32,000 nt of DNA from Pirellula staleyi DSM 6068 (GCA_000025185.1 CP001848.1:5760001-5792000); one strand, 5' to 3'; counted from the first letter of the stretch, positions 16,514 to 32,000 are shown. Notes: generated from the letters alone by a model not told the origin. Translations and numbers: made by a program.

Positions 16514-17254
16514 GTGGTTCTCCTAACGTTCTTCGCAGAGACGTGGGCAGATGTTCTAGTTGGCAAACTCACTGCTCAGGTGTTGTTCTGGTCTTGCTGC
16601 CGGAAGCTGGAAGTCGCCAGCCTTACCTGGGAATCTCTTCGTTTGATTCGCCAAGAAGTTCACTTTGAAATCGTTGGCAAACATGGCGTTAAGCGCTACC
16701 TTCGGATTCCAGAACGACTTTTCGAGCAACACATGTCGGCTCGGTCGTCGGCCAGCCAGTTCGTGTTTGCCGCCTACTGTGAGCAAGCACGGCAGGCGCA
16801 TACCTACAACTCAGGCTGTCAAAAAAAGATTCGAGCCGAGTTCGCCCCTAAGAACTTCGGGAGTTGGTTCTATGCACGGATCAAGGAATGGTCGGCCAGC
16901 CAGCCCAACGGTAACGCCAACGTCGATGTGCTTAGGAAGACGAGCTTACAACTTGCCTTCGATGGCGATGAAGTGGTAACCAGTCGCAAGGTTGCCGATG
17001 ACGCCGAAGTTAGTGAGTCCGTTCTACTCTGCCACTACGTCAACCTGGACCTGTGGCGGAAAAGCAATCGCACCTATTACCGGATTCTCGCTGCCCTGTC
17101 CGCTGACTTGGCCGCTCAGGTCGGGTACGTCGAGAGTGCCAGTGACCGACTGAGCAGAGAACTTGAGGCTGCTAAGGATCGAGGCGACTGGTCCCGTGTG
17201 GCAAAGCTCGCCGCTGAACTGGAGAAGCTGAACCGAGAGCGGAAGAGCGGCTGA
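16514..17254 (+). pseudogene. Tyrosine recombinase (phage integrase family), 5'-truncated: catalytic domain only
   Basis: The catalytic-domain landmarks appear in order: Arg-I context LFWSCCRKLEVASLTWESL, a GKHGVKRYLRIP beta-hairpin Lys, box II-like VDVLRKTSLQLA, and the nucleophile context SVLLCHYVN. There is no N-terminal core-binding/SAM-like domain. The reading frame stays open upstream into the AraC start region with no ATG, and the track start is a GTG. Confidence 0.65.
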
Positions 17255-17267
17255 AACCGTCCCTTTT

Positions 17268-17287
17268 TGTGAAATCCTGTGAAATCC
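17268..17287 (+). repeat. Perfect tandem repeat tgtgaaatcc x2
   Basis: Exact 10-nt units at 17268-17277 and 17278-17287, between the recombinase stop and the tRNA fragment. Confidence 0.7.
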
Positions 17288-17315
17288 GATTGCCGTCACA
17301 TAGGTCAAGAAACGA

Positions 17316-17348
17316 AAATAGCCGCAAGTCAAAGACTAGCGGCTATTT
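17316..17348. terminator. Perfect 10-bp inverted repeat (bidirectional terminator-like hairpin)
   Basis: aaatagccgc (17316-17325) pairs perfectly with gcggctattt (17339-17348), with a 13-nt loop. The GC core is flanked by an A-run on one side and a T-run on the other, so it could terminate transcription in both directions. Confidence 0.45.
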
Positions 17349-17354
17349 AGCAAG

Positions 17355-17396
17355 CGAGGCCGACGGGGCTCGAACCCGCAACCACCGGATCGACAG
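17355..17396 (-). other. 3' fragment (~42 nt) of a tRNA-Asp(GUC) gene, a candidate att repeat and not an intact tRNA
   Basis: The minus strand reads CTGTCGA-TCCGG-TGGTT-GCGGG-TTCGAGC-CCCGT-CGGCCTC-G. That is: anticodon loop with GTC, 3' anticodon stem, variable loop, full T-arm, 3' acceptor strand, discriminator G. The 5' side fails. GGAGA cannot pair with TCCGG. GCGGGGC cannot pair with CGGCCTC. No D-arm is present. Confidence 0.6.
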
Positions 17397-17688
17397 TCTC
17401 CTTGTCGCGATTCCGAAACCCCTGCCCCGCAAGAACTTGCGACCGAAGCATCGCTCAGTTTGCCCAAAATTGACTCAAATCCTTCGCAGCCCACTTCGGT
17501 AGCTGAAGCAATTCAGGCGCTCGCTCGCTTGCAGCCCGAGCTTCTCAGCGCCCTGCAAGCGCTGGCAAAGGTGGCAGTCGGGAGCGGCCCCAATGTGAGT
17601 GCCACTCCAAACTCAACCAACTCGCACAGCCTAGCTGCGCCAAATGCTGAGCCTGCTCCCCCCTCCCCTTTGCGGTCGGAGCGTCGCG

Positions 17689-18516
17689 ATGCCTAACAAG
17701 AAACGTCCAAGACGCCTTTCATCCGCCGCTCAAACCACAGCTCCCCCCCAAAAAATATCAGAACCAGATCGACTGGGAAATGAACTGGCGGACGCTGCCC
17801 TGAGAATCGTGCGTGAGCAAGCTGAAGTCGCCTGCGACGAGATTCGCGGACCGCAGATACGGATCCTTGCCGACACTAACGCCCGTTTCTGGCCAGTTAG
17901 TTCCGACCGCGTGAAAGATTGGATCACTCAACAACTTCTGGAGCGATTCAGAATCTGCGTCACGCAAAAACAACTTGCATTTGTCGTGCGAATCGTACGT
18001 GCAACGGCTTGGTCGTGCGAGAAGGCACCTTCGCAAAACGATCGTTCCATCTGGGACGCGATCGAAAATGAGCCTACCGGCCTAGCACTGCTGCAATACC
18101 TCGACGAGCGAGGCGGCTATGAGGGGCGAACACGAGATCTGTTCAAGGAGGTTGGGCGGGAAAATTTTCAAAAGAAGCTTCGACCTGCGTTCGGGAGAAA
18201 AAACTTTCCAGTGAACGTGCAGGTTTTCGCCCGGCGTGCAGCATCGCTGAGCCCACTGCTCTACGCCGTTGGAATCACACTTTCCTTCGCTCACAAAGCA
18301 GATGGCAGTTATTGCACCCTCAAACAAACCAACACCTCAACGGATCAATTGCCTCACTTTGACGAAGTTTCGTCAGTGAATGCGTCAGCTGTAAATCAAC
18401 TCCCTGAAATCATTTGCGGAACCGATGACGCAACTGACGGACAAACCTTGACATCGAAAAACCCATTAACAATTTTAGACCAGATTGAAGCCCTCAGAAT
18501 TAGGAATATCCAATGA
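17689..18516 (+). CDS. Hypothetical protein (275 aa from the ATG at 17689), translationally coupled to the downstream AAA+ gene
   Basis: Long ORF with a basic N-terminus, MPNKKRPRRLSS. Its stop overlaps the next start (ATGA at 18513-18516). I recognised no family motif. The track start at 17644 is an alternative. Confidence 0.55.
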   Translation: MPNKKRPRRLSSAAQTTAPPQKISEPDRLGNELADAALRIVREQAEVACDEIRGPQIRILADTNARFWPVSSDRVKDWITQQLLERFRICVTQKQLAFVVRIVRATAWSCEKAPSQNDRSIWDAIENEPTGLALLQYLDERGGYEGRTRDLFKEVGRENFQKKLRPAFGRKNFPVNVQVFARRAASLSPLLYAVGITLSFAHKADGSYCTLKQTNTSTDQLPHFDEVSSVNASAVNQLPEIICGTDDATDGQTLTSKNPLTILDQIEALRIRNIQ

Positions 18517-19331
18517 ACAAGCTCACTGCAGGCCAAATAGAATCGTCCTCTTACAGTAATTGGGATGAAATCGTCGGCAACAAACGACTTAAGCAAACGC
18601 TTCGCTCAATAGGCGAACGCATGGTCGGACCGACAAAAGCACTTGGATGTAACCTGCTAGTCACAGGCCAGTCACGCTCCGGAAAGACCTCGACAGTAGA
18701 ACTCTTCACATCAGCCGTTATGTGCAATAAATCGACCCCTGAAAACTTCCAGCCCTGCGGCGATTGCTACCCATGCTCGCAACAAGTCGGTCGACATAGC
18801 TTGCACGAAATTGACCACATTCTCGCTGGCGGCTTGGACCACGACATCTGCTTCTTGCCGCTCGATGGAAACCGATGTACCCAAGCAGAGTTAGACACCG
18901 CCATCGAGCAAATGAGTAGCGGCCCGAACTACCGCTGGATTTGCTACCTCGACGAAATCCAAGGGCTCGTTCGTCGTCATCTCGACCACCACCTGCTTCG
19001 CACTGTCGAACAATCAACACGTGTCAACTGGATCATGACAACCGCATCCACAAAAGGTCTCGACAAAATGTTCCGAAACCGATTCACAGAACTTTCTACT
19101 GAATTGCCGTCAGTAGAAGAGTTGGCGATATTTCTCGCAAAAAGATGCCTTACGCCGAGCATCAATATCGCCTGGGACGATAACAGCACCCTTGTGCGAC
19201 TGGCTCAACGGTGTGAGCAGGTGCCCGGAAAGGCTTTGAAATGCCTCGCCTTTGCAAGCTCGACAGGCGGAACACTCACGAGAGAACTAGTTGAAGATTT
19301 TATATTCGCTCCAGAAGACAACGACGAATAA
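18513..19331 (+). CDS. AAA+ ATPase of the clamp-loader type (DnaX/HolB/RFC-like) with a Cys-rich zinc module
   Basis: Colinear with the DnaX N-terminal domains: WDEIVGN (F.D..GQ), Walker A GQSRSGKTS, PCGDCYPC (PCGxCxxC zinc module), Walker B ICYLDEIQGL, LLRTVEQ...NWIMTT (LLKTLEEPP...F.LATT), NRF in place of the SRC motif, and PGKALKCL (GS.RDAL). Confidence 0.75.
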   Translation: MNKLTAGQIESSSYSNWDEIVGNKRLKQTLRSIGERMVGPTKALGCNLLVTGQSRSGKTSTVELFTSAVMCNKSTPENFQPCGDCYPCSQQVGRHSLHEIDHILAGGLDHDICFLPLDGNRCTQAELDTAIEQMSSGPNYRWICYLDEIQGLVRRHLDHHLLRTVEQSTRVNWIMTTASTKGLDKMFRNRFTELSTELPSVEELAIFLAKRCLTPSINIAWDDNSTLVRLAQRCEQVPGKALKCLAFASSTGGTLTRELVEDFIFAPEDNDE

Positions 19332-19417
19332 CACAAACAATGTGTTTATGAGTTACTACTGATCGCTCTCCTAACAACAATGTAGCCCCAAAGGAGCTTG
19401 GGGTGTACTCCAAGCTC

Positions 19418-20401
19418 TCACGCTGGGGTGGTTAGACTGCAAACCAGAAAACCGCTCCAGTGTGTACATATGCATACGCGTGTTCCGCTACACTTAAACA
19501 AGTAACAGATCACCATAGATTGGAAACTGCCCTGCTGAACTCTTGGAGTGTGAATTGTTGTGATGCTAACGTCGCAGGGCGTAAGCGAGTACCCGAAGGG
19601 CTGCTTCACAGAATAGGCATGCCGTTTTTTCGTGCCTGCAGAATACTTCCCCTCGTTCGTTTCAAACCACTCATATAAGCCTCCACTTTCCATCGCACGG
19701 TAAAGCTTTGAGACTTCAGATACTCGGGGGTCATTTGTGATCGATAGTGACCATTCTAGCCAGCGTCGGCTCGATGAACTGCTGATGTTATGATGCTTTT
19801 AGTAGTCCACAGCTCATTGCAAAAGCGAAGCACCCATTCGGCATCATAACCAGCGATCGCATGGACCAACGGAGGCTTTCTCATAGGGGCACTCTTCATC
19901 AATAGTTCCAAAGCATCGGCTTTTCGTTGGTCGGCCCCCACCTAAACACAGCATCGACTGGAAGCAAGCTGCCGCAGAGAACCGCCACAGAAATCTTGAC
20001 ATAGCGATGTCGATGGCGTTGCGAACGAGCCTGAAAATGAATGCTGGCCGCTGTCGCCTATAACCCCGTGAAGTCGATCGCTACTGGTTAGCCTGACTGC
20101 GAGAACTCTTTCGCCACGTCGGCCAAAATGGCATCGACAATCTCCAGCACATTGGATCGATCTGCGAAATGCTTGAGGGTTGTGTGGTGAGGCAATCGCT
20201 GAAGCCTGAGCCTCTCTTGCAAGGGAGGCGAAGCCTCCAGAAACTCAACACCCCTCGACAGGTGGTTTTGAGACAAGCCCTTAATATTGAATAGGCCATC
20301 AGCCGGGGCTGTGTTAACTTAAGCGGACTTTCAACGCACGAGTAGGGCTGCATATACTTTACTGACAGCCTAAGCCCAACCTGGCAGCCCTGAGAATTCA
20401 T
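19418..20401 (-). pseudogene. DDE transposase remnant (IS4/IS5-superfamily-like), multiply frameshifted
   Basis: My translations of different minus-strand frames give colinear pieces: TQPRLMAYSILRACLKTT.RGV / VEFLEASPPLQERLRLQRLPHHTTLKHFADR (N-terminal DNA-binding region); IGDSGQHSFSGSF (first D region); GPDQRKADALELL...LVHAIAGYDAEWVLRFCNE (second D, A-GYD); FTVRWKVEAYMSGLKRTRGSILQARK (Y.QRW.VE...S.LKR..GS.L.AR, the E region). Stops and frame changes lie between the pieces. Confidence 0.6.
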
Positions 20402-20898
20402 CTATTGTAAGTCGTCATCGCCTCGTTTTTGGGTTATCAATTACAGTCGTCAATATAACTTCAGCAGGGCAAAGGCCTATCTACACTGAATACCCCGAAG
20501 GAAACTGATACCTAAAGAGCCAGAAGTGGGTAAAGAATGCGCCGCTCCTGCTGCGCGATCAACAAATCGACCACTTTACATCCTCCCCGTGCCTAAACGG
20601 ACGTGGCTTTTTTGCACATGGCAATACCACTTGCAGCCGAATGCGGCTGTAGGATTATGCGGTAGAAGTCCTCCAGACATGTCACCCTATACTTCCAGGC
20701 GGCATGGACCTTAAAGAGCGAGACCCAAGACGCTCATCCTTTGCCCCCCTTTTCTGTGCACAGTTCCGAATCACTTCCCAGAGACACTTTGAACTGCGAA
20801 GTATGAAATTTGGCAAATGCAATATCGCGATATTACGATTTGAAACTATTGTTTATTCATAATGTTTACGACGACTGTGTGACTAAGGAGCTTCTAGG

Positions 20899-21282
20899 AT
20901 GACCATTGACGACACATGCCCTGTTTACAAAGCCGACGACCAAGAGCACAACGGGGCTTCATTTCAAATCAGTAGACTCGTACATAGCCGGTTAGACGCA
21001 AGTCGCCTGCTCGCTCCAATTCGCTACTGGGCCTATTTAACTGAGATGGAATCCAAAGGAGAAGAGCTAGAGCAGATTCTTTCAAATTGGGATAGCCCTA
21101 GTTTCGTGGAGTTGGCAAAGCGAGCAGATACAATTTTGGACGAACTCGATAGAATTTGGACGAGTGGCGACGACGGCGTTGACATGATGGACCTAGGAGA
21201 GCTCCGCGTCCCTCTGTATGCGCTGACGACAGCAATCCATAACCGGTGCTCTCAGCTGCGGGCTGACCAAGCAAAGCAGTAG
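20899..21282 (+). CDS. Hypothetical small acidic protein (127 aa)
   Basis: A strong RBS, aaggag, lies 8 nt upstream of the ATG (20885-20890). I counted 23 Asp+Glu against 13 Lys+Arg. No recognisable motif. Confidence 0.55.
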   Translation: MTIDDTCPVYKADDQEHNGASFQISRLVHSRLDASRLLAPIRYWAYLTEMESKGEELEQILSNWDSPSFVELAKRADTILDELDRIWTSGDDGVDMMDLGELRVPLYALTTAIHNRCSQLRADQAKQ

Positions 21283-21617
21283 TCGGAGGACCTCAGCCGG
21301 ATAACGTTTACTTACACCCCCTGTACGCTTCACCAAATCACCAGCTGGAATTTGTGCGGGCAGGGAGGGGGCCATATTTGAACTCAACGATCTTCTTGAT
21401 ATGGTTGCAGCATTTGGACACAGATCGGAGAGCCAACGTGAGTCGAAAGAAGAGGATATCCGGCGAGAACTCGCCCTACCGCCGCAGCACAGTCAGCTGG
21501 CCCACAATGCCGACATAACTTGCAATTCTTGCTTTAGAACAACCTAAAATTTCACAGTACAAGAATACGAAAGTCCTCCTCAATCAATGCTCAACCAAAA
21601 TAGAACACATCGACAAC

Positions 21618-22073
21618 ATGAAAACAGAAGAAACAGTGCATATTGCACTTCAGGAACCCAACTTCAATGACCTCGCGTGGTCAACACTTGCAACTTTATT
21701 TCGCCTTCCCGACGAGTTCAATCCTGGTGAAGACGAGAAAATTTCAGACGGATTTCAGTTTCTAGTCAGCCGCCAGAGTCCAATTAGGCTTGAGAATGCC
21801 TACGCAAACCCGCTTGGGGTAATTTACTCAAGCACTTTGAACGAACGTTTTCTTAGGGTGGCTCGCCGCCTTCAAAGCAAGTGGTTTTCGCAATTCAATT
21901 CCACTTTATTTTCGGCCGGGCGTGTAAAACGCGCCGTCGATGAGATGTCGCCTATTATTCGGCAATTGACCTTTACGGGTGTCATGATCTGCAATGGCCG
22001 ACATGTGTATCCTAATCACTGGCCGGATGCAATGACAAAACAATGGCAGACCTACTCGCGCAAGCGTCGCTAG
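21618..22073 (+). CDS. Hypothetical protein (151 aa)
   Basis: Clean ATG-initiated ORF on the same strand as its neighbours, with no competing ORF. No RBS is obvious and no motif was recognised. Confidence 0.5.
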   Translation: MKTEETVHIALQEPNFNDLAWSTLATLFRLPDEFNPGEDEKISDGFQFLVSRQSPIRLENAYANPLGVIYSSTLNERFLRVARRLQSKWFSQFNSTLFSAGRVKRAVDEMSPIIRQLTFTGVMICNGRHVYPNHWPDAMTKQWQTYSRKRR

Positions 22074-22536
22074 AAAGGAAGGTGTGGTACTCCAGTTAGT
22101 GTCGACCTTCGGTTATCGCCTATTGATCAGGCGATTCACAAATACGATCTCATTATCGCACTTTAATTGTGCGCTGAGTGAGCATTTCTCAAGTTCACCA
22201 ATGAGCTTGGGCGAATCTCACAAAAATATTTTTGATGATAATGCAGCAGAAAAAGAAGAAACAGAAATACTAGAACTAACAACAACAAATACTACTGAAG
22301 ATAACATACTAAAATGACTATTAGACTATAGAGATACTACTACTACTTAATCACACTAGTGATAGCATGTAACGAGAGCATAGATGAATCGCAATCATGA
22401 CATCGATTAAAGGAGTTTACCACAAAACAAGACATGCTTAACCGAACCACCGTAGGTGGCTAGAGGAGCTTGCAAGTCTTCGTGCGGGTAACGAATTCAG
22501 GTGACGATCTGATTCGTACTTTCATGGAGACTTGTA

Positions 22537-23520
22537 ATGGCTCACAATCTGGCAACTACCAACGGCAAAGTAGCGACGATGTTCTTTGGTGAGGTTCCTT
22601 GGCATCGCCTTGGAACCCGCCTGGAGAATCCAGCTACCGCGAGCGAAGCGATCACGGCTGCTGGACTCGATTACGAAGTCGAACTCAAACAACTTTTCAC
22701 CGGTGATGGAACTTTCGTTCCGCACCGCAAAGGAGTTGTGCGATCCGACAACGGTGAAGTGCTGGGAGCCGTCGGAAACACCTATGTTCCCGTCCAGAAC
22801 CGCCAGGCGTTTGGCTTTCTCGACGCAGTGGTTGCCGATGGCAGCCTACGGTATCACACTGCCGGTGCGCTGGGCAAAGGTGAACGGATCTGGCTACTCG
22901 CTAAACTGCCATCACAAATCCGCGTAAAAAACTCCGATGACTTAGTCGACAAATTCCTACTGCTGAGCAACGCTCACGATGGCTCCTCAGCCCTTCGTGT
23001 CTACTTCACGCCGATTCGAGTCGTTTGCCAGAACACGCTAAACCTGGCTGACAATCGCTCAACTGGTCAGGGAATCTCAATCTTGCACAAAGGAAACCTG
23101 CATACCAAAATCCGCGAAGCTCAGCGAGTACTGGGGCTGGCAGAAGAATTCTACGACGAAGCCGAAGGGATCATCGACATCCTGGCTAGTCACCACCCTT
23201 CGTCCGTGCAGGTCGAAGCCTTCTTCCAGTCAGTCATCCCTGACCCCATCGGTGCCGACAATGCTCGTGCTCGCAAGGTACGTGATCGTCTCACCTGCCT
23301 GTTCGAAACCGGCATCGGCCAAGATATGCCAGAGATTAAGGGTACCTCCTGGGCAGCGTACAACGCGGTCACCGAGTTCGTCGATCACCACCGCCCAACA
23401 CGGTCAACCGATCCTCTAGAGCGTGCCAGTCGCCGCCTGGATTCATCATGGTTCGGCAGCGGTGCCCGACTGAAGGCCAAAGCCTGGAACCTCGCCTTCG
23501 ACATGGCCCTTTCCGTGTAG
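22537..23520 (+). CDS. DUF932 (DUF945/TIGR03299-type) phage/plasmid-like protein
   Basis: Family-typical strings in order: FGEVPWHRLGT, VVRSDNGEVLGAVGNTYVPVQNRQAFGFLD, GALGKGERIWLLAKL, LLLSNAHDGSSALRVYFTPIRVVCQNTL. ggag lies 9 nt upstream of the ATG. Confidence 0.85.
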   Translation: MAHNLATTNGKVATMFFGEVPWHRLGTRLENPATASEAITAAGLDYEVELKQLFTGDGTFVPHRKGVVRSDNGEVLGAVGNTYVPVQNRQAFGFLDAVVADGSLRYHTAGALGKGERIWLLAKLPSQIRVKNSDDLVDKFLLLSNAHDGSSALRVYFTPIRVVCQNTLNLADNRSTGQGISILHKGNLHTKIREAQRVLGLAEEFYDEAEGIIDILASHHPSSVQVEAFFQSVIPDPIGADNARARKVRDRLTCLFETGIGQDMPEIKGTSWAAYNAVTEFVDHHRPTRSTDPLERASRRLDSSWFGSGARLKAKAWNLAFDMALSV

Positions 23521-24038
23521 GCGGTCTTCTGAGCATTTCAAACAATGACTCATCACATAGCACACTGGTCGGTGAAAGAGCAGGCTCGGAACGTATTTAC
23601 ACTCACCGGAGGTTCAGAGCCAAGACGACTGGACGGCTATTTAAACTTTTCTGGCCAGGGTCGGAGTTGGGACGCAGGACTGCGACGCACCTAACCCACT
23701 ACAAATCCCAACAGTATTCCATCAGCTACCGGTGCGGAGATCACAGAGGGTCCGGAGAGAAAAACCACATCTGACTAGTCCATGTCGAAATCGATTGACG
23801 CCACTACCCAAAGTTTAGAGACCATTTCCCCAATCTTGTGACTTTCTGCTCCGTCGAAAACCTGGCCCAAGAGTTCTATGGAATTCCCTACGAACGCTAC
23901 GCTCCAGCCCGAAGACAACTCCTCAACATCTGACGAGCCGTAAATCAGGCTCGGCGAGCCGCAGAATTCTCCAGAATTCCCGTCGAAGTCATCCCATTAG
24001 GACGCCGTATTGTGCGACCGTATTACAACGCGAGAATA

Positions 24039-25112
24039 TCACGGCAGTACCCCCGCTTCTTTGCAGGCTTTCAGAAAGGGTCGCTTGAGAAAGTTTACTT
24101 CGGCCCACGGATTCGAATTGGCGTTTTGTTCGATCTTGTCGATGATCTCCTGGGGCGTCATTCTGCCATTTGCACATTCATCAACAGCCTGAACGAGCCA
24201 GTATTTTCCGTCGTTTTTAGCACAAATCTTAGCCTTGTAACGCTCTTCGATTCCGAACACATCCATCCATGACTCAAGTTCCTCATCTCGGCCGGGCGAA
24301 CTGACAGTCAGCGTAATGTCGGACGGTATCAGTTTGTCGACTTCAGCTGACGCAATTGTCATGTTGATAGTGATACTAGGAGCAACGTTCGCAAAGCTGA
24401 AAAACGCCTTCCGGCGCCTTCCTCCTGTGGCCTTGTGAATTGGATCGATATGCCGCAGCGGATTCTTTTGCAGCTTGAAGCTGGAGTTGCATTCGTGGCA
24501 CATAGGTGCCAGATTTTTGAAATTCACCGAGTTGAACGGGTATGTGCCCTTGGGGAGAAAGTGATCGTAGGCTTCTCTCTTGTTGTGATGCTGTCCCTTG
24601 ATGTCGTTGTAGCCGCAATAGGGACATTTGCCTTCGTCGTTTGCTGTCACAAAGGCTTTGTAGTGAGCGTCGATCTCAGCTGTTCTGCTTGTGACAGCCT
24701 TTAGGTGAATGATGTCCTGGAACAGGCTCTTGCAGAATTTCTTTAACTCACTTTCCAGATTGTTGTTGAGCGACTTTATCTCGGCATACGTTCCTGGCAT
24801 TTTCTGAGGTTCGTTTCCGCAGAGGGCTTCGATATCGTTGTTGTGGTCATACCACTGGCTCACTTGGTCTCGCTGATCCGAATCCAGTTGATCCTGAAAA
24901 ATCGCGTCAATAATCTTGATTGGGCCGTCAAGGTGATCCTTAGTCAAGCTGTCATCGTTCGCGATCTCTTCGACTACAGCTTTCAAATCTGGGTGAAGCA
25001 GGCTGAGCGAGTACTCTCCGCCATTACGGCACCAGACTTTTTTGACGAGGTGGTCCAACCAGACCTGGAACTTCTCAATGTCGTGATTCACATAGCGATA
25101 ATTGAAGAGCAT
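24039..25112 (-). CDS. HNH nuclease-domain protein (357 aa), last gene of the R-M operon
   Basis: C163-P-Y-C166 ... Y-D183-H184-FLPK ... N200-L ... C205-H-E-C208-N-S-S-F-K. This is a CxxC/CxxC zinc-finger HNH core. It is flanked by an unassigned ~160-aa N-terminal region and a ~137-aa C-terminal region. The start lies 4 nt after the ATPase stop. Confidence 0.8.
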   Translation of the reverse strand: MLFNYRYVNHDIEKFQVWLDHLVKKVWCRNGGEYSLSLLHPDLKAVVEEIANDDSLTKDHLDGPIKIIDAIFQDQLDSDQRDQVSQWYDHNNDIEALCGNEPQKMPGTYAEIKSLNNNLESELKKFCKSLFQDIIHLKAVTSRTAEIDAHYKAFVTANDEGKCPYCGYNDIKGQHHNKREAYDHFLPKGTYPFNSVNFKNLAPMCHECNSSFKLQKNPLRHIDPIHKATGGRRRKAFFSFANVAPSITINMTIASAEVDKLIPSDITLTVSSPGRDEELESWMDVFGIEERYKAKICAKNDGKYWLVQAVDECANGRMTPQEIIDKIEQNANSNPWAEVNFLKRPFLKACKEAGVLP

Positions 25113-25116
25113 GACG

Positions 25117-26883
25117 CTATTTTCCCTCCTTCTTCTTAATCGCCTGATTCACAAAAAGGACCTTCTCAACAGAGTCGCCGAGTTCCTTGCCTGCCTCTTT
25201 AATAAGCACGTCGGGGTCTTCGCCTTCTTCAAGACGCTTGCGTAAGGCATTAAGTGTTGACATCGCATAATCGCCGATGGTTTCGATTTGACCGAAGACC
25301 TTCATTGTAATTGCGTTTGCCGAAGCGCCAAACGTCTCAAAATCCGGCCTTTGCCAAGTTACAGCCTGGGTTTCGGGATTCGTGGCGAAGACGAGAACGT
25401 TCTCCTTGCGGCAATCCGAAATGATGAACGGAGAATGAGATGTCAGAAGAACTTCCCGCATCACGTTCTTCGTGGCGGCGTCGGCTTCCAAGGCGGCTCG
25501 CAGGGTTGAGATGTACGATGCTCGCCAATCGGGGTTGAGGTGGGTTTCTGGCTCGTCGAGCAGGAAGAGTGCGGATTCATGGCGATAGAGCAGACACAGT
25601 CCGATGGTATGCAGGAACTGGTGTTCGCCATCGGAAAGGGATTTGATGTAGAGTGGTCCCGTGACACCATCCTTGATCAGTTCACCTTCTTTGAAGCGGG
25701 TTATTCGTTCATGCGATGCCGGCGTGGAAATTGTCTCGTTTACGTAGAGGCTAGATGACTGGTACAGTTCGTCCTTGGTCTCTTCGGCAACCAAATAGTT
25801 ATTGAGTGTAAGTAGTATCTGAAACGATTGAAATAGGTTGAGTGCGGACTTAGCTTTGTCGACTTCTGGCGATTCCCCGGATGCTTCTCCGAAGTGAACC
25901 TGAAAGGCGCGCTTTGTGGCATCGTTGACCCAGTAGTCTAAATACAGGTCGTACCCTTCGCCATCCTCATAGGAGGAATAGTCCTCGAAATAGGCGGTTG
26001 AGCATTGGGTAAGTTTGTCGATTAAGGCAGACAGCTTTGAGGTTAGCTCCACCGATTGTCCGGCAGAGGGTTCCTCTTGTGTTTCTGAATGCGTCTTCAA
26101 GTACTCTTCTATCAATGGATACCGGTGGTGTCGCCGGATGATGATACGGAACCTTTGAATTCCCCGTAGGCCGACTTTCTCCTCGAATACTCGAATTACG
26201 GGAGCGCTAGGAAACAAAAAGTGGCATATGAGAATCGCCTGGCTGAACTGCTCATCCAAGTAAACCATTCGACCTTCCGGACGTGAGTAATGATCGTCCA
26301 TTACAACTTTGGCACGGTATTCGTCGAAGTGAATGAACCGCATCTTGAAAAACGGCAAGCTCAGAATCTCATTGCGTCCCGACGAATATCCTAGGATAAA
26401 CCGAGGGAGTACAGACTTCACTTCGTTCCGCACTAGGCTCTTGTAGTCATCGTTCTTAAACTCCTTTTCGTTTAGCCACAGTACTTCGGGCTTGGTGTTC
26501 GCCTTTTTAACAATACGGATTCGGCAAGGCCTCTCATTCCCTTGGCTGTTCGGAGCAATCTGACTGAGAAACGAGATGGGAATGAAGTATTCCAGTTCAA
26601 ATGCATCTGGTGTACAGGATTCCGCCCGGAAGGCATCGGGGTTAGTTTCTTTGTCGTATTCAAATCCCTCGGGACGATATTCGAGATGGATGCATTCGAT
26701 GTGGTAAAAGATGGCAACCAAGGCTTCGAGGACATTAGATTTGCCGCTGCCATTACGACCGGCGAAACAGTACGGGTGGAATTCGAAGCAGCGGTCAAAG
26801 TCCCAATCGCGCAGGAAGTCGATCTCGAAGCCTGCGGGGAGGCTGCGAAAGGGGACATCTAGCTTGAGTCGAATTAGTTTCAT
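25117..26883 (-). CDS. ABC/SMC-type (AAA_15/21-like) ATPase, restriction-system-associated
   Basis: Walker A GRNGSGKS (aa 42-49), signature-like LSDGEHQ (416-422), Walker B LFLLDEPETHLNP (439-451), H-loop TSHSPF (481-486). A ~365-aa insert separates Walker A from the signature motif. The ATG overlaps the hsdS stop (ATGA at 26880-26883). Confidence 0.85.
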   Translation of the reverse strand: MKLIRLKLDVPFRSLPAGFEIDFLRDWDFDRCFEFHPYCFAGRNGSGKSNVLEALVAIFYHIECIHLEYRPEGFEYDKETNPDAFRAESCTPDAFELEYFIPISFLSQIAPNSQGNERPCRIRIVKKANTKPEVLWLNEKEFKNDDYKSLVRNEVKSVLPRFILGYSSGRNEILSLPFFKMRFIHFDEYRAKVVMDDHYSRPEGRMVYLDEQFSQAILICHFLFPSAPVIRVFEEKVGLRGIQRFRIIIRRHHRYPLIEEYLKTHSETQEEPSAGQSVELTSKLSALIDKLTQCSTAYFEDYSSYEDGEGYDLYLDYWVNDATKRAFQVHFGEASGESPEVDKAKSALNLFQSFQILLTLNNYLVAEETKDELYQSSSLYVNETISTPASHERITRFKEGELIKDGVTGPLYIKSLSDGEHQFLHTIGLCLLYRHESALFLLDEPETHLNPDWRASYISTLRAALEADAATKNVMREVLLTSHSPFIISDCRKENVLVFATNPETQAVTWQRPDFETFGASANAITMKVFGQIETIGDYAMSTLNALRKRLEEGEDPDVLIKEAGKELGDSVEKVLFVNQAIKKKEGK

Positions 26884-28433
26884 GTCCCGGGCCTCAACAC
26901 AATTTCCCGTTGTTCTTCGCTGAACTCCTGCTTGAGGACGCCTGCAGCCACATACTCGAAGACCTTGTTCTTGACGGTCTCATAATCTGGCTCGGCGAAA
27001 TCCTGCTCCACGATGGACCAGATCTTTGCGAAGCTGAATGGGGGCTGGAGAATCTGGCTCAGCGTGCGGTACTTGAAGAAGTCTTCGGACCAAGGGAGCG
27101 GCTCAGCCTGTTCTCCCTCCAGCTTCTTTTCCATCGCCAGCAACTGCTTTTCGATATCCGCCGGGGCGATGAAGCTGCCGGGCCGCGTGTAGCGTCCTTC
27201 TGCGACGGTTGGTTGCGGCGCTGGTGAAACGATCGGTGATTCCGCTGCGGGGCCGAGTTGGAGTCGACTCAGATCCAGTTCACCGCGAAAGGCTCGCTGT
27301 TGGAGGGATGAAAACAACTTGTCCAGCAGCTTCCCGTTCTCTGTCTTGTCGAGCGTCAACTGACGCAAGTCTCGTGCAATGCGAGAAAACTCCTGCTGGA
27401 GGTCCAATTCTGGGGCCAGCGCGGGAAGCGGACGCAGCCTTTCCAAATTGAGGTTTGCGCGAGCAGCGTCAGGCGCGAGTTCCTTTAGTCTGGGTTTCCA
27501 TAGACGCAGAAGGAACTCAAGGAACTCCGATGTCGCCTTGGTCGGATACGGCGTAACTCCTATGATGCTATCAGGGCAATAGACGGGTGTCTCGACGATG
27601 GCGGTCTCACCAAGTGTGGCACCCACGATCGCGATGACAACAGTCCCCGGTTGAAACTCTCGGCTGACCCGAATTCCCTTCTCGTTGAGAGTCTGCGTCC
27701 AACCTGTGATTCGTCCTTTGCTGCGGGTAATGTCGCCGGTCTGAATAAAGGGGAAATCGCCACTGTAGTAGGAAGGATCGTTCCTCGGTCGCGGAGTGAA
27801 TTTCCCTCGTTCCAACTTCGCCAAGTTTTCCAAATCGTCGGTCGGCAGATTCTTGGGATTCCCAACCGGATCGCCGAACATGCTGAGGAAGACGGATTGC
27901 AGGAGCTTCTCGGTGAGTTGCAGCGATTCCTGGCGCTGGCGGCGGAGGGCATCGGCCTTGTCCAACACCGCCGCAATCCGCCGTTGCTCGTCCAGCGGCG
28001 GAACAGGGATTTCAATCTCCGCAACTGCTGCCGGTCTCGCTCGCTTGAGTGACCCACCAACTCCGGCGACCGTTTGCAGAAATGCCTTATGGAACTCATC
28101 GCCCACGAGGACTTTCGAGAGGTATCCTGCATCAACACGGTGAGTACGAAACACTATCCACTCACCTGATCCAATCATCCGATGTGTGGATAGTGTCTTA
28201 CCAACTACCCAGCAACGACGGATGTGTGGCACAATCTTCGAAAGAAGTACGTCTCCTGGCTGCAGAATCTGTTTCGATGAGCCAATTTCGCTTCCAAGCA
28301 ACTCTTCTGGAGCACCGTTGTCAAATGCAGGGATGCTGTAAAGCGAGAAGCGTTCACTCGGTGATTTGTCCGGATTGACCGTTCCCGTCTTGCGTGCCAA
28401 CAGGTCTCCGACTTTGATTCGTCTCCATTTCAT
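26880..28433 (-). CDS. hsdS: Type I restriction-modification specificity subunit HsdS, with a ~131-aa C-terminal extension
   Basis: There are two target-recognition-like halves. They are separated by the conserved coiled regions PPLDEQRRIAAVLDKADALRRQRQESLQLTEKLLQSVF and LQQEFSRIARDL...LFSSLQQRAFRGEL. The start overlaps the hsdM stop (ATGA at 28430-28433). Confidence 0.9.
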   Translation of the reverse strand: MKWRRIKVGDLLARKTGTVNPDKSPSERFSLYSIPAFDNGAPEELLGSEIGSSKQILQPGDVLLSKIVPHIRRCWVVGKTLSTHRMIGSGEWIVFRTHRVDAGYLSKVLVGDEFHKAFLQTVAGVGGSLKRARPAAVAEIEIPVPPLDEQRRIAAVLDKADALRRQRQESLQLTEKLLQSVFLSMFGDPVGNPKNLPTDDLENLAKLERGKFTPRPRNDPSYYSGDFPFIQTGDITRSKGRITGWTQTLNEKGIRVSREFQPGTVVIAIVGATLGETAIVETPVYCPDSIIGVTPYPTKATSEFLEFLLRLWKPRLKELAPDAARANLNLERLRPLPALAPELDLQQEFSRIARDLRQLTLDKTENGKLLDKLFSSLQQRAFRGELDLSRLQLGPAAESPIVSPAPQPTVAEGRYTRPGSFIAPADIEKQLLAMEKKLEGEQAEPLPWSEDFFKYRTLSQILQPPFSFAKIWSIVEQDFAEPDYETVKNKVFEYVAAGVLKQEFSEEQREIVLRPGT

Positions 28434-30094
28434 CCCAGGATCTCCTGCAACTCCGAGATCCCTTGCTGAATCTTGTCTTCCAATGCCTTTAATTGCTGGA
28501 GAAGAGACTTCGGATCTTCATGTTCCGTTTCATCATGCTCCACCTCGCCATAGCGGTTGAACGAAAGGTCGTACGTCTTCTCGCGAATCTCTTCCACCGG
28601 AACAAAGAAGCAATTCGATTTCCTGTCTCCTTTTTCCTTGGGGTTTCTAGCGTTCCATTTTTCGACAACGTCTGGCAGTTCGCTTCCGTCGACTCGCGTG
28701 CGACGATCATCGAGTGTCATCCCGTCGTTCGCCAGGTTGTAGAACCACGTGTGCTGCGTCTTGCCGCTGCGTGTGAAAACGAGAATCGCCGTGGCAACCC
28801 CGGCATAGGGTTTGAACACTCCACTGGGAAGAGATATCACGGCCTTGAGTTCCGCCTCTTCCACCAGCTTCTTGCGGGCTTCGACGAAGGCACCGGCGGC
28901 ACCGAATAGCACTCCTTGCGGCACGATGATGCCTGCCGTTCCCCCTTTCTTGAGCAACGTGAAGATGCGCTCGGTGAAGAGGAGTTCGGTCTTGGTGGTC
29001 TTCAGCGTCAGACCTTCGTTGATGTCTCCTTTGTCAATGCTACCTGTGAACGGCGGATTGGCCATCACGATGTCGTATTCCATTTCCTCAGTGAAACTCT
29101 TGCTGAGCGTGTCTTGGTAATCGACATGTGGATTGTCGATGCCGTGCATCATCAGGTTCATCAAAGCCAGCCGAACCATTGTGCTGTCGAAATCGAACCC
29201 GTAGAGGCTTTGCTCCAGAATGTCCTTCTTGTTCTGGTCAAGTTGGCCGCTGACACTGGTGCGGATGAAGCCATCTTCGTCCGGCTCGAACTTCTGCTTC
29301 TTGACTTTCTTCCGCGCAAGCTGGGTGACGATGTACTGATAGGCATCGAGCAGAAAGCCAGCCGTGCCGCAGGCGGGATCGCAAATACGATGACCAAGCT
29401 GGGGATTCACCAGCTCGCTGATCAGCTTGATGATGTGCCGAGGGGTGCGAAACTGGCCGTTCTTGCCCGCACTGCTGATTTCGTTCAGCAGCATCTCGTA
29501 GACATCGCCCTGGATGTCCTGAAAAAGGTGCCCTTGCTCCCGAGCATCGAGTTCGATCTCGACGAAGATCTCTTCGATGATCTGCACCGCCCCCTGCAGC
29601 AGGTTGGCGCTGGGGATGATGAAGACGGCGTTCGCCATGTGTTTGGCGAAATTGCTGCCGTCGCCATTGAGTTCCTTGATGAAGGGGAAAACTTTTTGCT
29701 GCACATGCGGCAACATCTCGTCGGCCTTCATCTGTCGGAAGTGACTCCAGCGGAGCGTGGCCTTGTCGATGGCGAGCCGTTTGCGTTCGCTTTTCACTTC
29801 CGCCTCCCGCGCTTTCTTCTGAGCGGCGGATTCTCCGGCTTTCGGCTTGGACATCTCCTCGATGCGAGAACGGTCATTCGGCAGGAAATAGTCGCCGGAA
29901 AATCGCGATGTGTAGGTATCGCCAGTGAATTCGGCATCCTGTTCCCGCTTGAGATCAAGCTCGTCAATCTGCTTCATGAACAGCAGGTAGGTGATCTGCT
30001 CAATCGCGGAAAGCGGATTGGAAATGCCGCCAGACCAGAATCGGTCCCACAGCTTAGCGATCAGAGCCTTGAGCTTGGCGTTGATTTGCAGCAT
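28430..30094 (-). CDS. hsdM: Type I restriction-modification DNA methyltransferase subunit HsdM (N6-adenine)
   Basis: HsdM N-domain (LWDRFWSGGISNPLSAIEQITYLLFMK), GQFRTPRHI, motif I CDPACGTAGFLL, motif IV VMANPPFTG. Confidence 0.95.
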   Translation of the reverse strand: MLQINAKLKALIAKLWDRFWSGGISNPLSAIEQITYLLFMKQIDELDLKREQDAEFTGDTYTSRFSGDYFLPNDRSRIEEMSKPKAGESAAQKKAREAEVKSERKRLAIDKATLRWSHFRQMKADEMLPHVQQKVFPFIKELNGDGSNFAKHMANAVFIIPSANLLQGAVQIIEEIFVEIELDAREQGHLFQDIQGDVYEMLLNEISSAGKNGQFRTPRHIIKLISELVNPQLGHRICDPACGTAGFLLDAYQYIVTQLARKKVKKQKFEPDEDGFIRTSVSGQLDQNKKDILEQSLYGFDFDSTMVRLALMNLMMHGIDNPHVDYQDTLSKSFTEEMEYDIVMANPPFTGSIDKGDINEGLTLKTTKTELLFTERIFTLLKKGGTAGIIVPQGVLFGAAGAFVEARKKLVEEAELKAVISLPSGVFKPYAGVATAILVFTRSGKTQHTWFYNLANDGMTLDDRRTRVDGSELPDVVEKWNARNPKEKGDRKSNCFFVPVEEIREKTYDLSFNRYGEVEHDETEHEDPKSLLQQLKALEDKIQQGISELQEILG

Positions 30095-30097
30095 GAG

Positions 30098-32000
30098 TTA
30101 GGCAACCAGACTTTCGGTAAGGGCGAGGATTTCATTGATTTCTTTGGGCGAGAAGATGCCGCGAATCCCGCTGGGATGAATGACGGTAAACGGGGCTTGG
30201 ATCAGGTCTCGCTTCTCGATGCCACCCCGTTCAATCAGAAAATCACGCAGCAACCGCAGGAACTGAAGCTGATGGCTGTTGAGTGTGGGGTGCTCGGCAA
30301 TGAACTGATCGATCGACTTGGAAACCGTATCCGGGAAGCTCTCCAGGATTTCAATTCCCAGAATATGGCGGATGAACCGAATGAACGAAGCCCGCTGATG
30401 GTGATAGACTCGGCGAAGCAACTGCAACGTGATGTGCGGGTGCTCTTCGTGCAGTTGCGTGGCCAGGTCTTCGGCCTCGTCATCGGTGACGTTCTGGCCG
30501 TCGCGAATCTTCTGCAAGATGGGATTGCTGGCGGTCAGTTCGTTGACCTTCTCTTCGACCAGCTTGCGGTACTGGGCAATGCTGAGCGACTCGTGCTCCG
30601 GGCCGAACTCCACGTACTCCTTGGCTGTCAGGACGTCGGCAAAGTTGAACTTGGCGGGGCCATCGCTGGAACCTCGCCCATCCCGGTAGTGCATCAGGGG
30701 ACCAAGTCGCTTCACGAGATCGTCGAACCCTAGATCGGTGATTGTCGCCCAATAGTGATTGGTCTGAGCTTTCTGAATCAGCCCCGCTTCCTGTGCGACG
30801 ACATTAACAGAAAGGGGCAATTCACTGACCTGTGCGGTTAGGCTTTCCGTCAGGGCGGCGTACTTCTCCTTTTCGCCCTTGAGCTGTGCGAGAGAGGCTT
30901 CGAGCACGTCTTTCTCGAATCGCATCGCTTTGAAATCGACCTGCGAAACAACACGGAACAGCGGTTGGACTGCGTGGCGAAGGAACGCGATGCCATCCGC
31001 TGTCAACGGCAGCCAGAAAGCATCGGCCTCGCATTTCGCCAGATTGGCTTTCGATTCCATGATGGAGACTGATTTGCCCGGCAAAGCTGCGATTTGGCCA
31101 CGAAGGGCGGCGATCTCTTTGTCCGCTACTGACGACTGACCAAGAACCTGAGCGGCTTCAATCTTGTCGATGCGAGCGCCAACCAGTCGAACCGGCAGCG
31201 GAACCTGAGGCTTGGGTTCTTTCCCTTTCGGGGTGAGCTGGAAGTAATCGAAGTTGTCCCAGCAATCGATGATCTGGAAGACATCCTTCTCGGGACACCA
31301 TGCCTTGATTTTGTTGGATTCCAGGAGTCGCGTGCCGCGACCAATCATCTGCCAAAACTTGGTGTACGAGAAAACCGGCTTCGCAAAGACGAGGTTGACG
31401 ATTTCACGAACGTCGATGCCGGTATCGAGCATGTCGACGCTGATCGCCACTCGGGGCATGTCGCTGCGAGTGAACTGGTCCAGCAATCCGCCCTTGCCAT
31501 AGACGCGAGGATCGTCAGAAACCATGACCTTGGCGAGTTCGCCTTTGTATTCCGGATAGAGTGAATCAAAGATGCGTTCGATGCGTCGAGCGTGGGCGAC
31601 CGACATGCAGAAGAAAATCGTCTTGCCGGGAAGAACGCCATTCGGGTCCTTGATGGATTCCTCCATGAACTCCTTCACGATGAGGGCGTTCGTGGCGTGG
31701 TTCGTGACCTTCTTTTCGAGGTCGGTCCCTTCGTAGACGATTTCCTCGATGTCCTTACCTTCGAGGATGAGCCGTTTCTGATCCTCCAGGCTGATGGTGC
31801 GTTTGCTGATGCCTTCGTCCTGGAACTTGGTTTTGATCTTCAGGACACGGAAGTCGCAGAGGTACGGTGGGACGTGATTGATGGCTTCATCGTAGGAAAA
31901 CGCGAAGCTGGGGAGACCGTCCTCGCAGTGGAATACGGCAAACGTGTTGTGGTCGATGACATCGCGAGGCGTTGCTGTCAGACCTAGTATAATTGAATGA
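30098..32000 (-). CDS. hsdR: Type I restriction endonuclease subunit HsdR, C-terminal ~634 aa (5' end beyond the window)
   Basis: My translation upstream of the track GTG stays open to the window edge and contains helicase motif III, ILGLTATP (TATP at 31967-31978). Downstream lie KTIFFC (motif IV), VDMLDTGIDV (V) and QMIGRGTR (VI), plus an EcoEI-R-type C-terminal helical tail. Only a 3-nt spacer precedes hsdM. Confidence 0.9.
   Translation of the reverse strand, partial: HSIILGLTATPRDVIDHNTFAVFHCEDGLPSFAFSYDEAINHVPPYLCDFRVLKIKTKFQDEGISKRTISLEDQKRLILEGKDIEEIVYEGTDLEKKVTNHATNALIVKEFMEESIKDPNGVLPGKTIFFCMSVAHARRIERIFDSLYPEYKGELAKVMVSDDPRVYGKGGLLDQFTRSDMPRVAISVDMLDTGIDVREIVNLVFAKPVFSYTKFWQMIGRGTRLLESNKIKAWCPEKDVFQIIDCWDNFDYFQLTPKGKEPKPQVPLPVRLVGARIDKIEAAQVLGQSSVADKEIAALRGQIAALPGKSVSIMESKANLAKCEADAFWLPLTADGIAFLRHAVQPLFRVVSQVDFKAMRFEKDVLEASLAQLKGEKEKYAALTESLTAQVSELPLSVNVVAQEAGLIQKAQTNHYWATITDLGFDDLVKRLGPLMHYRDGRGSSDGPAKFNFADVLTAKEYVEFGPEHESLSIAQYRKLVEEKVNELTASNPILQKIRDGQNVTDDEAEDLATQLHEEHPHITLQLLRRVYHHQRASFIRFIRHILGIEILESFPDTVSKSIDQFIAEHPTLNSHQLQFLRLLRDFLIERGGIEKRDLIQAPFTVIHPSGIRGIFSPKEINEILALTESLVA

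Follow-up and report, generated by a model that had tools for sequence, protein, structure and literature searches.

A pair of adjacent genes encoding an ABC-type ATPase and an HNH nuclease is located at positions 24039-26883 of a 32,000-nucleotide stretch of DNA from Pirellula staleyi DSM 6068 (GCA_000025185.1, CP001848.1:5760001-5792000), hereafter called the window, whose positions are counted from its first letter. The two genes are the last of five minus-strand genes, the other three being the type I restriction-modification (R-M) genes hsdR, hsdM and hsdS. We found that they code for a PtuA-like ATPase and a PtuB-like zinc-ribbon HNH nuclease, that is, for an effector pair of the Septu type, which in this setting is non-autonomous: together with hsdM and hsdS, to which they are translationally coupled, the two genes make up a fixed four-gene unit, hsdM-hsdS-ATPase-HNH, belonging to a single type IB-like clade. 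The operon in the window is organized as follows:

24039..25112, minus strand: gene of the HNH nuclease partner, PtuB-like, 357 amino acids (aa), last gene of the operon
25113..25116, minus strand: 4-nucleotide (nt) spacer from the ATPase stop to the HNH start (TAG-cgtc-ATG), read from the sequence
25117..26883, minus strand: gene of the PtuA-like SMC/Rad50-type ABC ATPase, TIGR04435, 588 aa
26880..28433, minus strand: hsdS, specificity subunit, 517 aa, its stop overlapping the ATPase start
26880-26883, minus strand: ATGA overlap of hsdS and the ATPase gene
28430..30094, minus strand: hsdM, N6-adenine methyltransferase, 554 aa
28430-28433, minus strand: ATGA overlap of hsdM and hsdS
30095-30097, minus strand: 3-nt spacer between hsdR and hsdM
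30098..32000, minus strand: hsdR, C-terminal 633 aa, the gene continuing past the window edge

Calls of open reading frames (ORFs) and direct reading of the sequence agreed on the five genes, their lengths and their four junctions, just as the original prediction for this DNA had given them, and all the ATPase and HNH motifs that it quoted were present in the translations. Both proteins of the pair showed 100% identity to the P. staleyi DSM 6068 records. Its statement that the junctions leave no room for internal promoters was too strong, since promoters can lie inside coding sequence. When positions 23400-32000 were scanned for promoter and terminator consensus sequences, such sites were no commoner than in shuffled sequence, which is consistent with a single transcription unit but is no proof of it. 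An AGGAGG-like site is situated within the end of the ATPase gene, before the TAG-cgtc-ATG junction to the HNH gene.

The 588-aa ATPase matched the NCBIfam model TIGR04435 with 808 bits (cutoff 300; E 4.7e-243), its residues 1-585 aligning to positions 1-567 of the 568-position profile. This model, a hypothetical equivalog named "restriction system-associated AAA family ATPase" that is in wide use by PGAP and IMG, was also passed by the Escherichia coli relative and by all the tested relatives from cassettes devoid of hsdR (378-805 bits). Membership of TIGR04435 implies that the ATPase family had already been defined by curators through its neighbourhood; it is a curated yet uncharacterised family. 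Pfam searches returned AAA_21 (65 bits) and AAA_15 (46 bits), the strongest PADLOC match was the PtuA model PDLC00293 (182.7 bits), and a sequence search of the PDB yielded PtuA chains as the sole relatives, with weak similarity (E 5e-5 over ~100 residues). An AlphaFold2 model of the protein (predicted local distance difference test, pLDDT, 77; predicted TM-score, pTM, 0.77) was compared with the PDB by Foldseek, and the 36 best matches were all PtuA (E 1e-11 to 1e-6, probability 1.0), including PtuA of retron I-A, Ec78, Eco7 and Ec83 and the E. coli Septu structures 8EEA and 8EE4, with Rad50 and SMC heads ranking after them. TM-scores to PtuA were just 0.3-0.45, as expected for a multi-lobed protein modelled in a different conformation. 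Three helices (residues 538-585) are predicted at the C-terminus by AlphaFold2. The nucleotide-binding motifs are located as follows:

26737..26760, minus strand: Walker A GRNGSGKS, residues 42-49
25546..25638, minus strand: ABC signature LSDGEHQ (residues 416-422) and Walker B LFLLDEPE (residues 439-446), sequence motifs

The Walker B stretch LFLLDEPETHLNP corresponds to residues 439-451, and TSHSPF to residues 481-486. G42, N44, G45, G47, K48 and S49 of Walker A, as well as S417, D418, G419, E420, Q422, D443, E444 and H483, were invariant in 93/93 complete cassettes.

The 357-aa HNH protein is covered by no curated family model, and a Pfam scan gave no match. It has 1361 homologues at E<=1e-3 in a 90%-clustered collection, the 120 listed being all full length (~350-365 aa), and 2588 representatives at E<=1e-3, or 232 at E<=1e-30, in a 50%-clustered library. 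Among PADLOC models, the best match was PDC-M62B (63.8 bits, residues 74-293), PtuB models matched residues 143-227 only (E 6e-9), and 19/19 divergent members of the family partially matched PDC-M01B or PDC-M62B. Sequence searches of the PDB with the family profile and with the HNH core returned nothing meaningful. An AlphaFold2 model (pLDDT 77) allowed the protein to be divided into three parts:

24642..25112, minus strand: N-terminal helical domain, residues 1-157 (AlphaFold2), family-specific and absent from PtuB
24378..24641, minus strand: zinc-ribbon HNH core, residues 158-245, with C163-x2-C166, D183-H184, N200 and C205-x2-C208-N209
24039..24377, minus strand: C-terminal domain, residues 246-357 and the stop codon, a two-strand element followed by helices (AlphaFold2)

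The N-terminal domain, with predicted helices at residues 11-27, 41-51, 62-75, 78-91, 109-132 and 147-157, was modelled with a pLDDT of 87-97 for residues 11-100 and is kept in all aligned family members; Foldseek gave no PDB match to it (best E 2.7). In the core, CPYC lies at residues 163-166, YDHFLPK at 182-188, NL at 200-201 and CHECNSSFK at 205-213, the D183/H184 codons corresponding to positions 24561-24566. The four Cys, D183/H184, N200 and N209 were invariant in 93/93 cassettes, including those without hsdR. The C-terminal domain, in which W282 and R291 are nearly invariant, ends in three predicted helices (302-314, 320-333 and 338-353) and is, by analogy with the PtuB C-terminal domain (PMC12819146), the predicted ATPase-binding part. 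A 587-aa ORF of the representative library (P0142) joins the first ~330 ATPase residues to HNH residues 104-356; it may represent either a natural fusion by deletion or an artefact of assembly and, if real, would be devoid of both the signature/Walker B half of the ATPase and the HNH N-terminal domain.

The partner genes display the hallmarks of a type I R-M system, namely an HsdM with N6_Mtase and NPPF, an HsdS with two target-recognition domains, and the HsdR domains, the N-terminal ones being judged from relatives. HsdM matched Pfam N6_Mtase (212 bits) and HsdM_N and PADLOC MTase_I (560 bits), and its NPPF (residues 346-349) was invariant in 93/93 cassettes. HsdS matched Pfam Methylase_S and, with residues 3-386, PADLOC Specificity_I (PDLC03069), and its conservation profile consisted of two variable target-recognition domains and two conserved regions. 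Across the family HsdS measures 480-650 aa, in cassettes with and without hsdR, and in the window it exceeds the canonical two-domain fold as follows:

26883..27248, minus strand: HsdS C-terminal extension, residues 396-517, beyond the 387-position HsdS model

The extension comprises a gappy, variable linker rich in Pro, Ala and Glu and then a nearly gap-free module of ~57 aa (residues 461-517); both occur in cassettes with and without hsdR, and neither a PDB match by sequence nor a Pfam match was found for the extension. The module is a candidate docking or tethering site for the ATPase-HNH pair. The 633 aa of HsdR encoded in the window matched Pfam EcoEI_R_C and Helicase_C and positions 482-1091 of the 1107-position PADLOC model REase_I (PDLC03047), and full-length relatives of ~932 aa carry HSDR_N, ResIII, Helicase_C and EcoEI_R_C. 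The EcoAI/FtnUII model NF046051 gave 86.9 bits with these C-terminal 633 aa, under its cutoff of 550. The C-terminal part of the cassette HsdR is 61-97% identical across phyla, as a tight clade of its own. When plasmids were searched with HsdR, one match at 65.6% was obtained, on a plasmid that also bears the pair, and the next best reached 35%. Judged by sequence similarity, the cassette HsdR is thus related to the EcoEI_R_C type (type IB-like) but constitutes a separate clade.

We surveyed the neighbourhood of the pair in genomes and metagenomes, all counts covering the loci whose contig reached far enough. A genome scan with the HNH family profile, in which each species was represented by one genome, detected relatives in 249 species, and we examined the 80 best loci; a metagenome scan was seeded on 7 divergent members, such members being 23-38% identical to each other. 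The taxa in the genome scan comprised Planctomycetota, Verrucomicrobiota, Lentisphaerae, Bacteroidota, Cyanobacteria, Chlorobi, Desulfobacterota, one Clostridium and many Pseudomonadota (among them Citrobacter, Kosakonia, Shewanella, Xanthomonas and Nitrosomonas europaea). In its loci the genes were arranged on the same strand as hsdR-hsdM-hsdS-ATPase-HNH, the ATPase being present in 72/72, hsdS in 64/64, hsdM in 58/58 and hsdR in 55/55; the metagenome loci gave 50/50 for the ATPase, 41/42 for hsdS, 38/38 for hsdM and 23/30 for hsdR. Overall, 160 loci retrieved from more than 10 phyla had the fixed order hsdM-hsdS-ATPase-HNH, and a stand-alone ATPase-HNH pair was found in none of the ~170 loci examined. 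The sole exception, and the only locus in which the pair is not preceded by hsdS, was a decayed one (L108; metagenome contig Ga0210040_10003448, 2-5317), where hsdR is in two pieces, hsdM and hsdS are gone, the ATPase gene is frameshifted and the HNH gene is intact.

The junctions are as conserved as the order. A 4-nt overlap joins hsdM to hsdS in 79 loci and hsdS to the ATPase gene in 83, and the ATPase and HNH genes overlap by 1 nt in 97 loci and by 4 nt in 18. The hsdR-hsdM junction is loose; the spacer there measures 12-17 nt or more and can reach 2 kb, and its larger gaps carry variable cargo of the classic "restriction-linked ORF" kind, namely AlbA_2/Schlafen-HATPase_c_4-winged-helix proteins (~465 aa) and RhuM-Fic, Bro-N and KilA-N proteins; insertions within M-S-ATPase-HNH were never seen in the surveyed cassettes. 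A recurrent ORF of ~125 aa without Pfam match is also found among this cargo. Cargo-bearing gaps were observed in L008, L024, L025, L035, L037 and L044 (~1.4 kb), in L158 and L160, in L129, L135 and L071, and in L058, and gaps of ~0.38 kb in L102, L104, L113, L121 and L150.

Pairwise identities of the components were strongly correlated (Spearman 0.90 for HNH/ATPase, 0.89 for ATPase/HsdM and 0.86 for HNH/HsdM); at the level of sequence, these values show inheritance as a unit, the loci being interrelated so that the correlations are not independent tests. Mean identity was 0.41 and 0.47 for the pair versus 0.65 for HsdM, i.e., the pair evolves faster. HsdS identity could fall to 28-45% between cassettes whose HsdM proteins shared at least 85%, as is usual for shuffled specificity domains. 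A more distant cassette, which is also the next-best plasmid HsdR system mentioned above, is carried by a Pantoea agglomerans plasmid (L170; NZ_CP134740, 7131-17334) with the same five-gene order and similarly overlapping junctions. Its HsdR is 40% identical over the full length and its HsdM ~35%, and its ATPase and HNH proteins are alignable to those of the window over short stretches only. It encodes a methyltransferase enlarged to 817 aa, an HsdS of 635 aa, a PtuA-like ATPase of 668 aa and a 365-aa protein carrying CxxC...DH...N...CxxCN, the last two annotated as "AAA family ATPase" and "hypothetical protein" (HNH-like). Since this sister cassette keeps the architecture at ~30-40% identity, the association is older than the TIGR04435 clade. 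The linkage of the pair to hsdM and hsdS is, therefore, ancient as well as obligate.

The remaining gene of the operon, hsdR, proved to be dispensable. In seven metagenome loci (six of them distinct) no hsdR was present within at least 4.9 kb upstream of hsdM, and further cassettes without it were found on a Priestia plasmid and at two loci reached through divergent members. Housekeeping genes flank the hsdR-less cassettes (for example, those for GluRS, glycosyltransferases, an ABC-F protein and a rhamnosidase). We rejected the possibility that the hsdR-less loci are a single separate clade, as they are scattered among hsdR-bearing relatives: the ATPase of hsdR-less L106 is 77% identical to that of hsdR-bearing L101, and that of L139 is 71% identical to that of L073. 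A deeper hsdR-less group also exists, in which the L083 ATPase is 45-46% identical to those of L086 and L088, and these two are 68% identical to each other. Hence, hsdR, while usually present, has disappeared repeatedly from cassettes that retained the other four genes. Two other candidates for lack of hsdR were discarded, L055 because of an over-extended hsdS ORF and L007 because of an insertion in hsdM; in the latter (Bryobacteraceae metagenome-assembled genome, ~1745-5515), ~3.8 kb split hsdM in an otherwise complete five-gene cassette.

Both forms occur in E. coli, where the pair is present in 96/5426 complete genomes and RefSeq annotates the TIGR04435 ATPase. The five-gene form was found in 11 genomes, inside an integrative and conjugative element (ICE; L081), strain CFSAN064036 (NZ_CP028166 1961374-1970276) being an example of this form, and the four-gene form in 85 genomes, adjoining yeeJ and an element with type IV secretion system (T4SS) and ArdC genes (L168, EC16; NZ_CP074120 163386-169466). 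No hsdR remnant was detected within 10 kb of the latter locus. A blastn search of E. coli with the cassette hsdR found the gene in 10 genomes only, and elsewhere just a 126-nt helicase motif, which indicates that the 85 four-gene genomes are without a cognate hsdR anywhere. The nine hsdR-less cassettes among the 93 complete ones had all their catalytic residues intact. In turn, where hsdR is present, the PD-ExK motif of HsdR is kept in at least 97% of 79 sequences, and the idea that the HNH protein replaces a dead HsdR nuclease was rejected on this ground. Collectively, the invariance of M-S-ATPase-HNH and the repeated loss of hsdR define HsdM-HsdS plus the PtuAB-like pair as the functional unit.

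With respect to the original prediction, the description of the pair as Septu-like but atypical holds, with an ATPase fold closest to PtuA and an HNH core that partially matches PtuB, PDC-M01B and PDC-M62B models, and so does its separation from canonical PtuA/PtuB, given that the retron I-A PtuA equivalog NF041760 scored 44.3 bits (cutoff 500) and TIGR02646 22.9 bits with the HNH protein (cutoff 52). The proposed coupling to hsdS turned out to be absolute rather than merely preferential, apart from the decayed locus. Other points had to be amended. The ATPase, although rightly likened to Septu, already belonged to TIGR04435, a family named for its restriction linkage; of a pair welded to a type I R-M operon, the linkage to hsdM-hsdS stands but not the notion of an add-on to a complete operon, hsdR being dispensable; and the HNH flanks, which could not be assigned at that time, correspond to a confident helical domain without PDB match on the N-terminal side and, on the C-terminal side, to a region ending in three PtuB-like helices.

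Regarding mobility, cassettes are carried on integrative elements, as ICE genes flank L081 and T4SS and ArdC genes flank L168. Phage records contained no match to the cassette, and one viral contig in 2.9 million carried it, so that a phage or satellite system was rejected. This contig (L169; IMGVR_UViG_2687453341_000003, 107 kb), the only one of the viral collection with the ATPase (72% identity), may be a prophage-flanking or mis-binned host region. In the window itself, a DUF932 gene (22537-23520) converges on the end of the operon in a stretch of lower G+C content (0.47-0.53 in 12000-27000 versus 0.55-0.62 in the first 12 kb). This stretch, which includes ORFs without Pfam match at 12146-14242, 17644-18516 and 21618-22073, looks like a horizontally acquired island; no tRNA genes were found within the window. 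On the plus strand, 3300-8984 is occupied by an ORF of 1894 aa in which a papain-like Peptidase_C39_2 domain (residues 307-416) precedes a very long TPR array. Some surroundings of hsdR-less cassettes are also worth recording. Directly downstream of those of L083 and L084 (L083 9202-13063) there are genes for a methyltransferase-HIT fusion, an HNH_4 protein, an RNA ligase and an HD/AAA_33 kinase-like protein, which together look like an RNA-repair set, a point of note as PtuAB and PrrC have been linked to tRNA damage. In the region just upstream of the L086 cassette (1-2987), a gene encoding more than 1000 aa is followed by a Wadjet-like one that matches JetD_C, and the cassette starts with a small HTH_26 regulator gene that may encode a controller protein.

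As for the function of the unit, we propose, with a probability of about 0.45 and by analogy with characterised systems, that HsdM2S binds and controls the pair, which would serve as a guard or decoy effector. The ATPase would dimerise and hold the HNH subunit via C-terminal helices in the PtuAB fashion, an interface that is plausible from the predicted models and the PtuAB precedent. The resulting ATPase-HNH complex would be docked on HsdM2-HsdS and kept silent there, the candidate contact surfaces being the tethered HsdS C-terminal module and the extra N-terminal domain of the HNH protein. An anti-restriction DNA mimic (Ocr, ArdA) or another insult that occupies or disables HsdM2S would release the pair or switch it on, and the activated pair would cut nucleic acid, with nicking of DNA or loss of tRNA as PtuAB is reported to cause, and thereby bring about growth arrest or abortive infection. 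With hsdR, the cassette would combine restriction and guard; without it, it would be a decoy-type guard like Ronin. We favour this reading over that of a second restriction nuclease because all the relatives of the pair that have been characterised are toxic effectors kept under negative control, because effectors controlled by type I systems exist (PrrC, Ronin) and PARIS senses Ocr, because both the hsdR-bearing and the hsdR-less forms then make sense, and because the pair evolves faster than HsdM, as fits a part exposed to phage counter-measures. Several points weigh against it. We infer the contact of the pair with HsdMS, and the trigger and the substrate are drawn from analogy only. The HNH core was poorly modelled (pLDDT 40-66), and Foldseek with the model of the whole protein found no relative in the PDB, PtuB not being recovered. 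Loss of hsdR is common in type I systems at large, and the 85 E. coli genomes are near-identical at the locus, i.e., they count as one loss event. Finally, target-recognition domains of HsdS from hsdR-less cassettes were 26% identical where HsdM was 68%, a divergence that could mean that sequence-specific recognition is still used for cutting, or that may have been inherited from different hsdR-bearing ancestors.

The main rival is a reading in which the pair is a second restriction arm, recruited by HsdM2S at an unmethylated site, where the ATPase would clamp or load on DNA and the HNH protein would nick or cut; it would be the sole restriction nuclease when hsdR is absent and, beside hsdR, would back up or complement translocation-dependent cleavage. 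We regard this as possible, though on the unlikely side. It would account for the persistence of hsdR-less four-gene cassettes with HsdM, ATPase and HNH catalytic residues intact and for the fixed stoichiometry with the recognition complex that translational coupling to hsdS suggests, and the strong divergence of HsdS specificity domains between otherwise similar cassettes, hsdR-less ones included, is compatible with it without being decisive, since independent losses of hsdR from already differing ancestors would explain it as well. Where hsdR is present, its conserved PD-ExK motif leaves no missing nuclease to be replaced and, to our knowledge, no type I-like enzyme with an ABC ATPase and an HNH nuclease exists. 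Stand-alone and retron-released PtuAB do nick DNA in vitro (PMC12819146), but the characterised relatives of the pair are toxic effectors under negative control and not methylation-sensitive endonucleases. A bolder version, which we consider unlikely, takes hsdM-hsdS-ATPase-HNH as a complete R-M enzyme of a new type, in which the PtuAB-like pair replaces or joins HsdR under the guidance of HsdM2S and the hsdR-less cassettes, those of the 85 E. coli genomes included, are the minimal form.

Two further alternatives would dissociate the pair from recognition by HsdM2S or from defence. An autonomous Septu-like system with its own phage sensor might share the operon for co-regulation or co-transfer only, with no physical or functional interaction, given that defence genes cluster and are often co-transcribed and that the hsdR-hsdM junction readily takes unrelated cargo genes. 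Stand-alone Septu does work without a partner (PMC12819146). We disfavour this alternative as improbable: no stand-alone copy appeared in the survey, more than 10 phyla and the ~30-40% identical sister clade share the gene order and the overlapping codons, the components co-diverge, cargo enters only between hsdR and hsdM and never inside M-S-ATPase-HNH, and the HsdS of the family bears an extra conserved C-terminal module. Very improbable, in our judgement, is a housekeeping role for the R-M system, e.g., post-segregational killing that stabilises the cassette, or restriction alleviation during establishment. A toxin restrained by a methylase complex would indeed act as an addiction module, and cassettes reside on integrative or conjugative elements (the E. 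coli ICE and T4SS/ArdC loci; in the window, the DUF932 gene adjoins the operon); nothing in the sequences points there specifically, addiction would leave the fast evolution of the pair relative to HsdM unexplained, and the characterised homologues all act in phage defence.

Effectors of this type, R-M systems of this type and, through the TIGR04435 name, their association in genomes are already known. What appears to be undescribed is the obligate unit of four genes, the recurrent losses of hsdR, the family of the HNH partner, with a new N-terminal domain, and the extension of HsdS. Septu-type pairs have so far been known stand-alone or co-opted by retrons, and the cassette would represent a second co-option of PtuAB, by an R-M recognition complex, in an old and widespread association. 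This bears on how bacteria respond to anti-restriction proteins, for which PrrC, PARIS and Ronin are known guardians of R-M. If the pair were instead a second restriction arm, it would be a methylation-sensitive cutting module and a new way to build a restriction enzyme. In terms of annotation there is a gap, as the HNH partner and the extra HsdS module are without a curated family. Natural five-gene and four-gene forms are both available in E. coli, the catalytic residues (K48, D443/E444, H184) are defined, and Ocr and ArdA, which trigger Ronin, are at hand as candidate triggers.

Among the known systems, MADS (methylation-associated defence system) was rejected on the basis of scores far below the cutoffs (MAD3 21.5 bits versus 420, MAD2 115.7 versus 720, MAD5 18.2 versus 400). 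The PADLOC candidates PDC-M62 and PDC-M01, untested two-gene ATPase and HNH systems on which literature searches returned nothing beyond counts, provided the best PADLOC matches of the HNH protein, but these matches are partial and weak (E ~1e-17), and PADLOC holds no model for the present family. PARIS, an ABC ATPase plus nuclease that senses Ocr (PMC12707154), shares with the pair an ATPase of the broad AAA_15/AAA_21 group (AriA, whose models partially match the ATPase with 60 bits) coupled to a nuclease. AriB, however, is a Toprim nuclease and PARIS stands alone, often in phage satellites; no Toprim protein is encoded in the operon, the partner being an HNH nuclease, and PARIS was consequently rejected.

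PrrC is encoded within a type IC locus and becomes active once EcoprrI is blocked (PMC12707154). PrrC/EcoprrI and RloC resemble the cassette in that a nuclease with an ABC-type NTPase part lies within a type I locus, with silencing by the R-M complex having been proposed, but in PrrC the anticodon-nuclease domain is part of one and the same protein, whereas ATPase and HNH are here separate and of the PtuAB type. PrrC/RloC were rejected, as the ATPase, which ends in three helices, lacks a nuclease domain, the nuclease being encoded separately as an HNH protein. Ronin, in which HsdMS is combined with a toxin and HsdR is lacking, responds to ArdA and Ocr as triggers (bioRxiv 10.1101/2023.04.06.535777). 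Like the present family, it links HsdM and HsdS tightly to an effector and occurs in E. coli, and HsdR is usually absent in Ronin. By contrast, RonA is a membrane toxin of 61 aa, while the effectors described here are an ATPase of ~590 aa and a nuclease of ~360 aa, and most cassettes, that of the window included, retain hsdR. Since the genes after hsdS encode soluble proteins of 588 and 357 aa and hsdR is present, membership of Ronin was rejected and the likeness is architectural only.

With respect to TIGR04435, the window ATPase is a full-length member, encoded beside type I R-M genes and directly 3' of hsdS, but the model names the ATPase alone, the HNH partner being annotated as "HNH endonuclease" or "hypothetical protein". 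Literature searches for this family found no function, partner list or paper, nor did the searchable literature contain a paper on the hsdM-hsdS-ATPase-HNH cassette; an earlier description in the ABC-ATPase survey of Krishnan et al. (2020) is possible.

The closest resemblance is to Septu and retron I-A, with which the pair shares the order of ATPase and then HNH, an SMC/Rad50-like ABC ATPase having PtuA as its best fold, and a zinc-ribbon HNH core that PtuB models match in part. PtuB is a small HNH nuclease of ~200-250 aa; unlike Septu PtuB, the HNH protein is ~130 aa longer, with an extra N-terminal helical domain and the HNH core in the middle. The pair also differs from Septu, an autonomous two-gene system, in that it was never found alone. 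In solved PtuAB, three helices at the C-terminus of PtuB lie between the C-terminal extensions of two PtuA subunits (PMC12819146), and both proteins of the pair likewise end in three helices, as the PtuA C-terminal extension and the PtuB C-terminal domain do at that interface. Stand-alone PtuAB nicks DNA in vitro and is inhibited by ATP, and retron-bound PtuAB is freed on phage attack, which results in loss of tRNA-Tyr (PMC11555353, PMC12819146); in retron Ec78, PtuAB is a toxin unit restrained by a partner complex (PMC12819146). Membership of retron I-A was rejected, as NF041760 scored below its cutoff and no reverse transcriptase gene is present in the operon. The partner is HsdM-HsdS in the cassette and a reverse transcriptase with multicopy single-stranded DNA (msDNA) in the retron, and in both cases a PtuAB-type pair is joined to another module by which it could be controlled.

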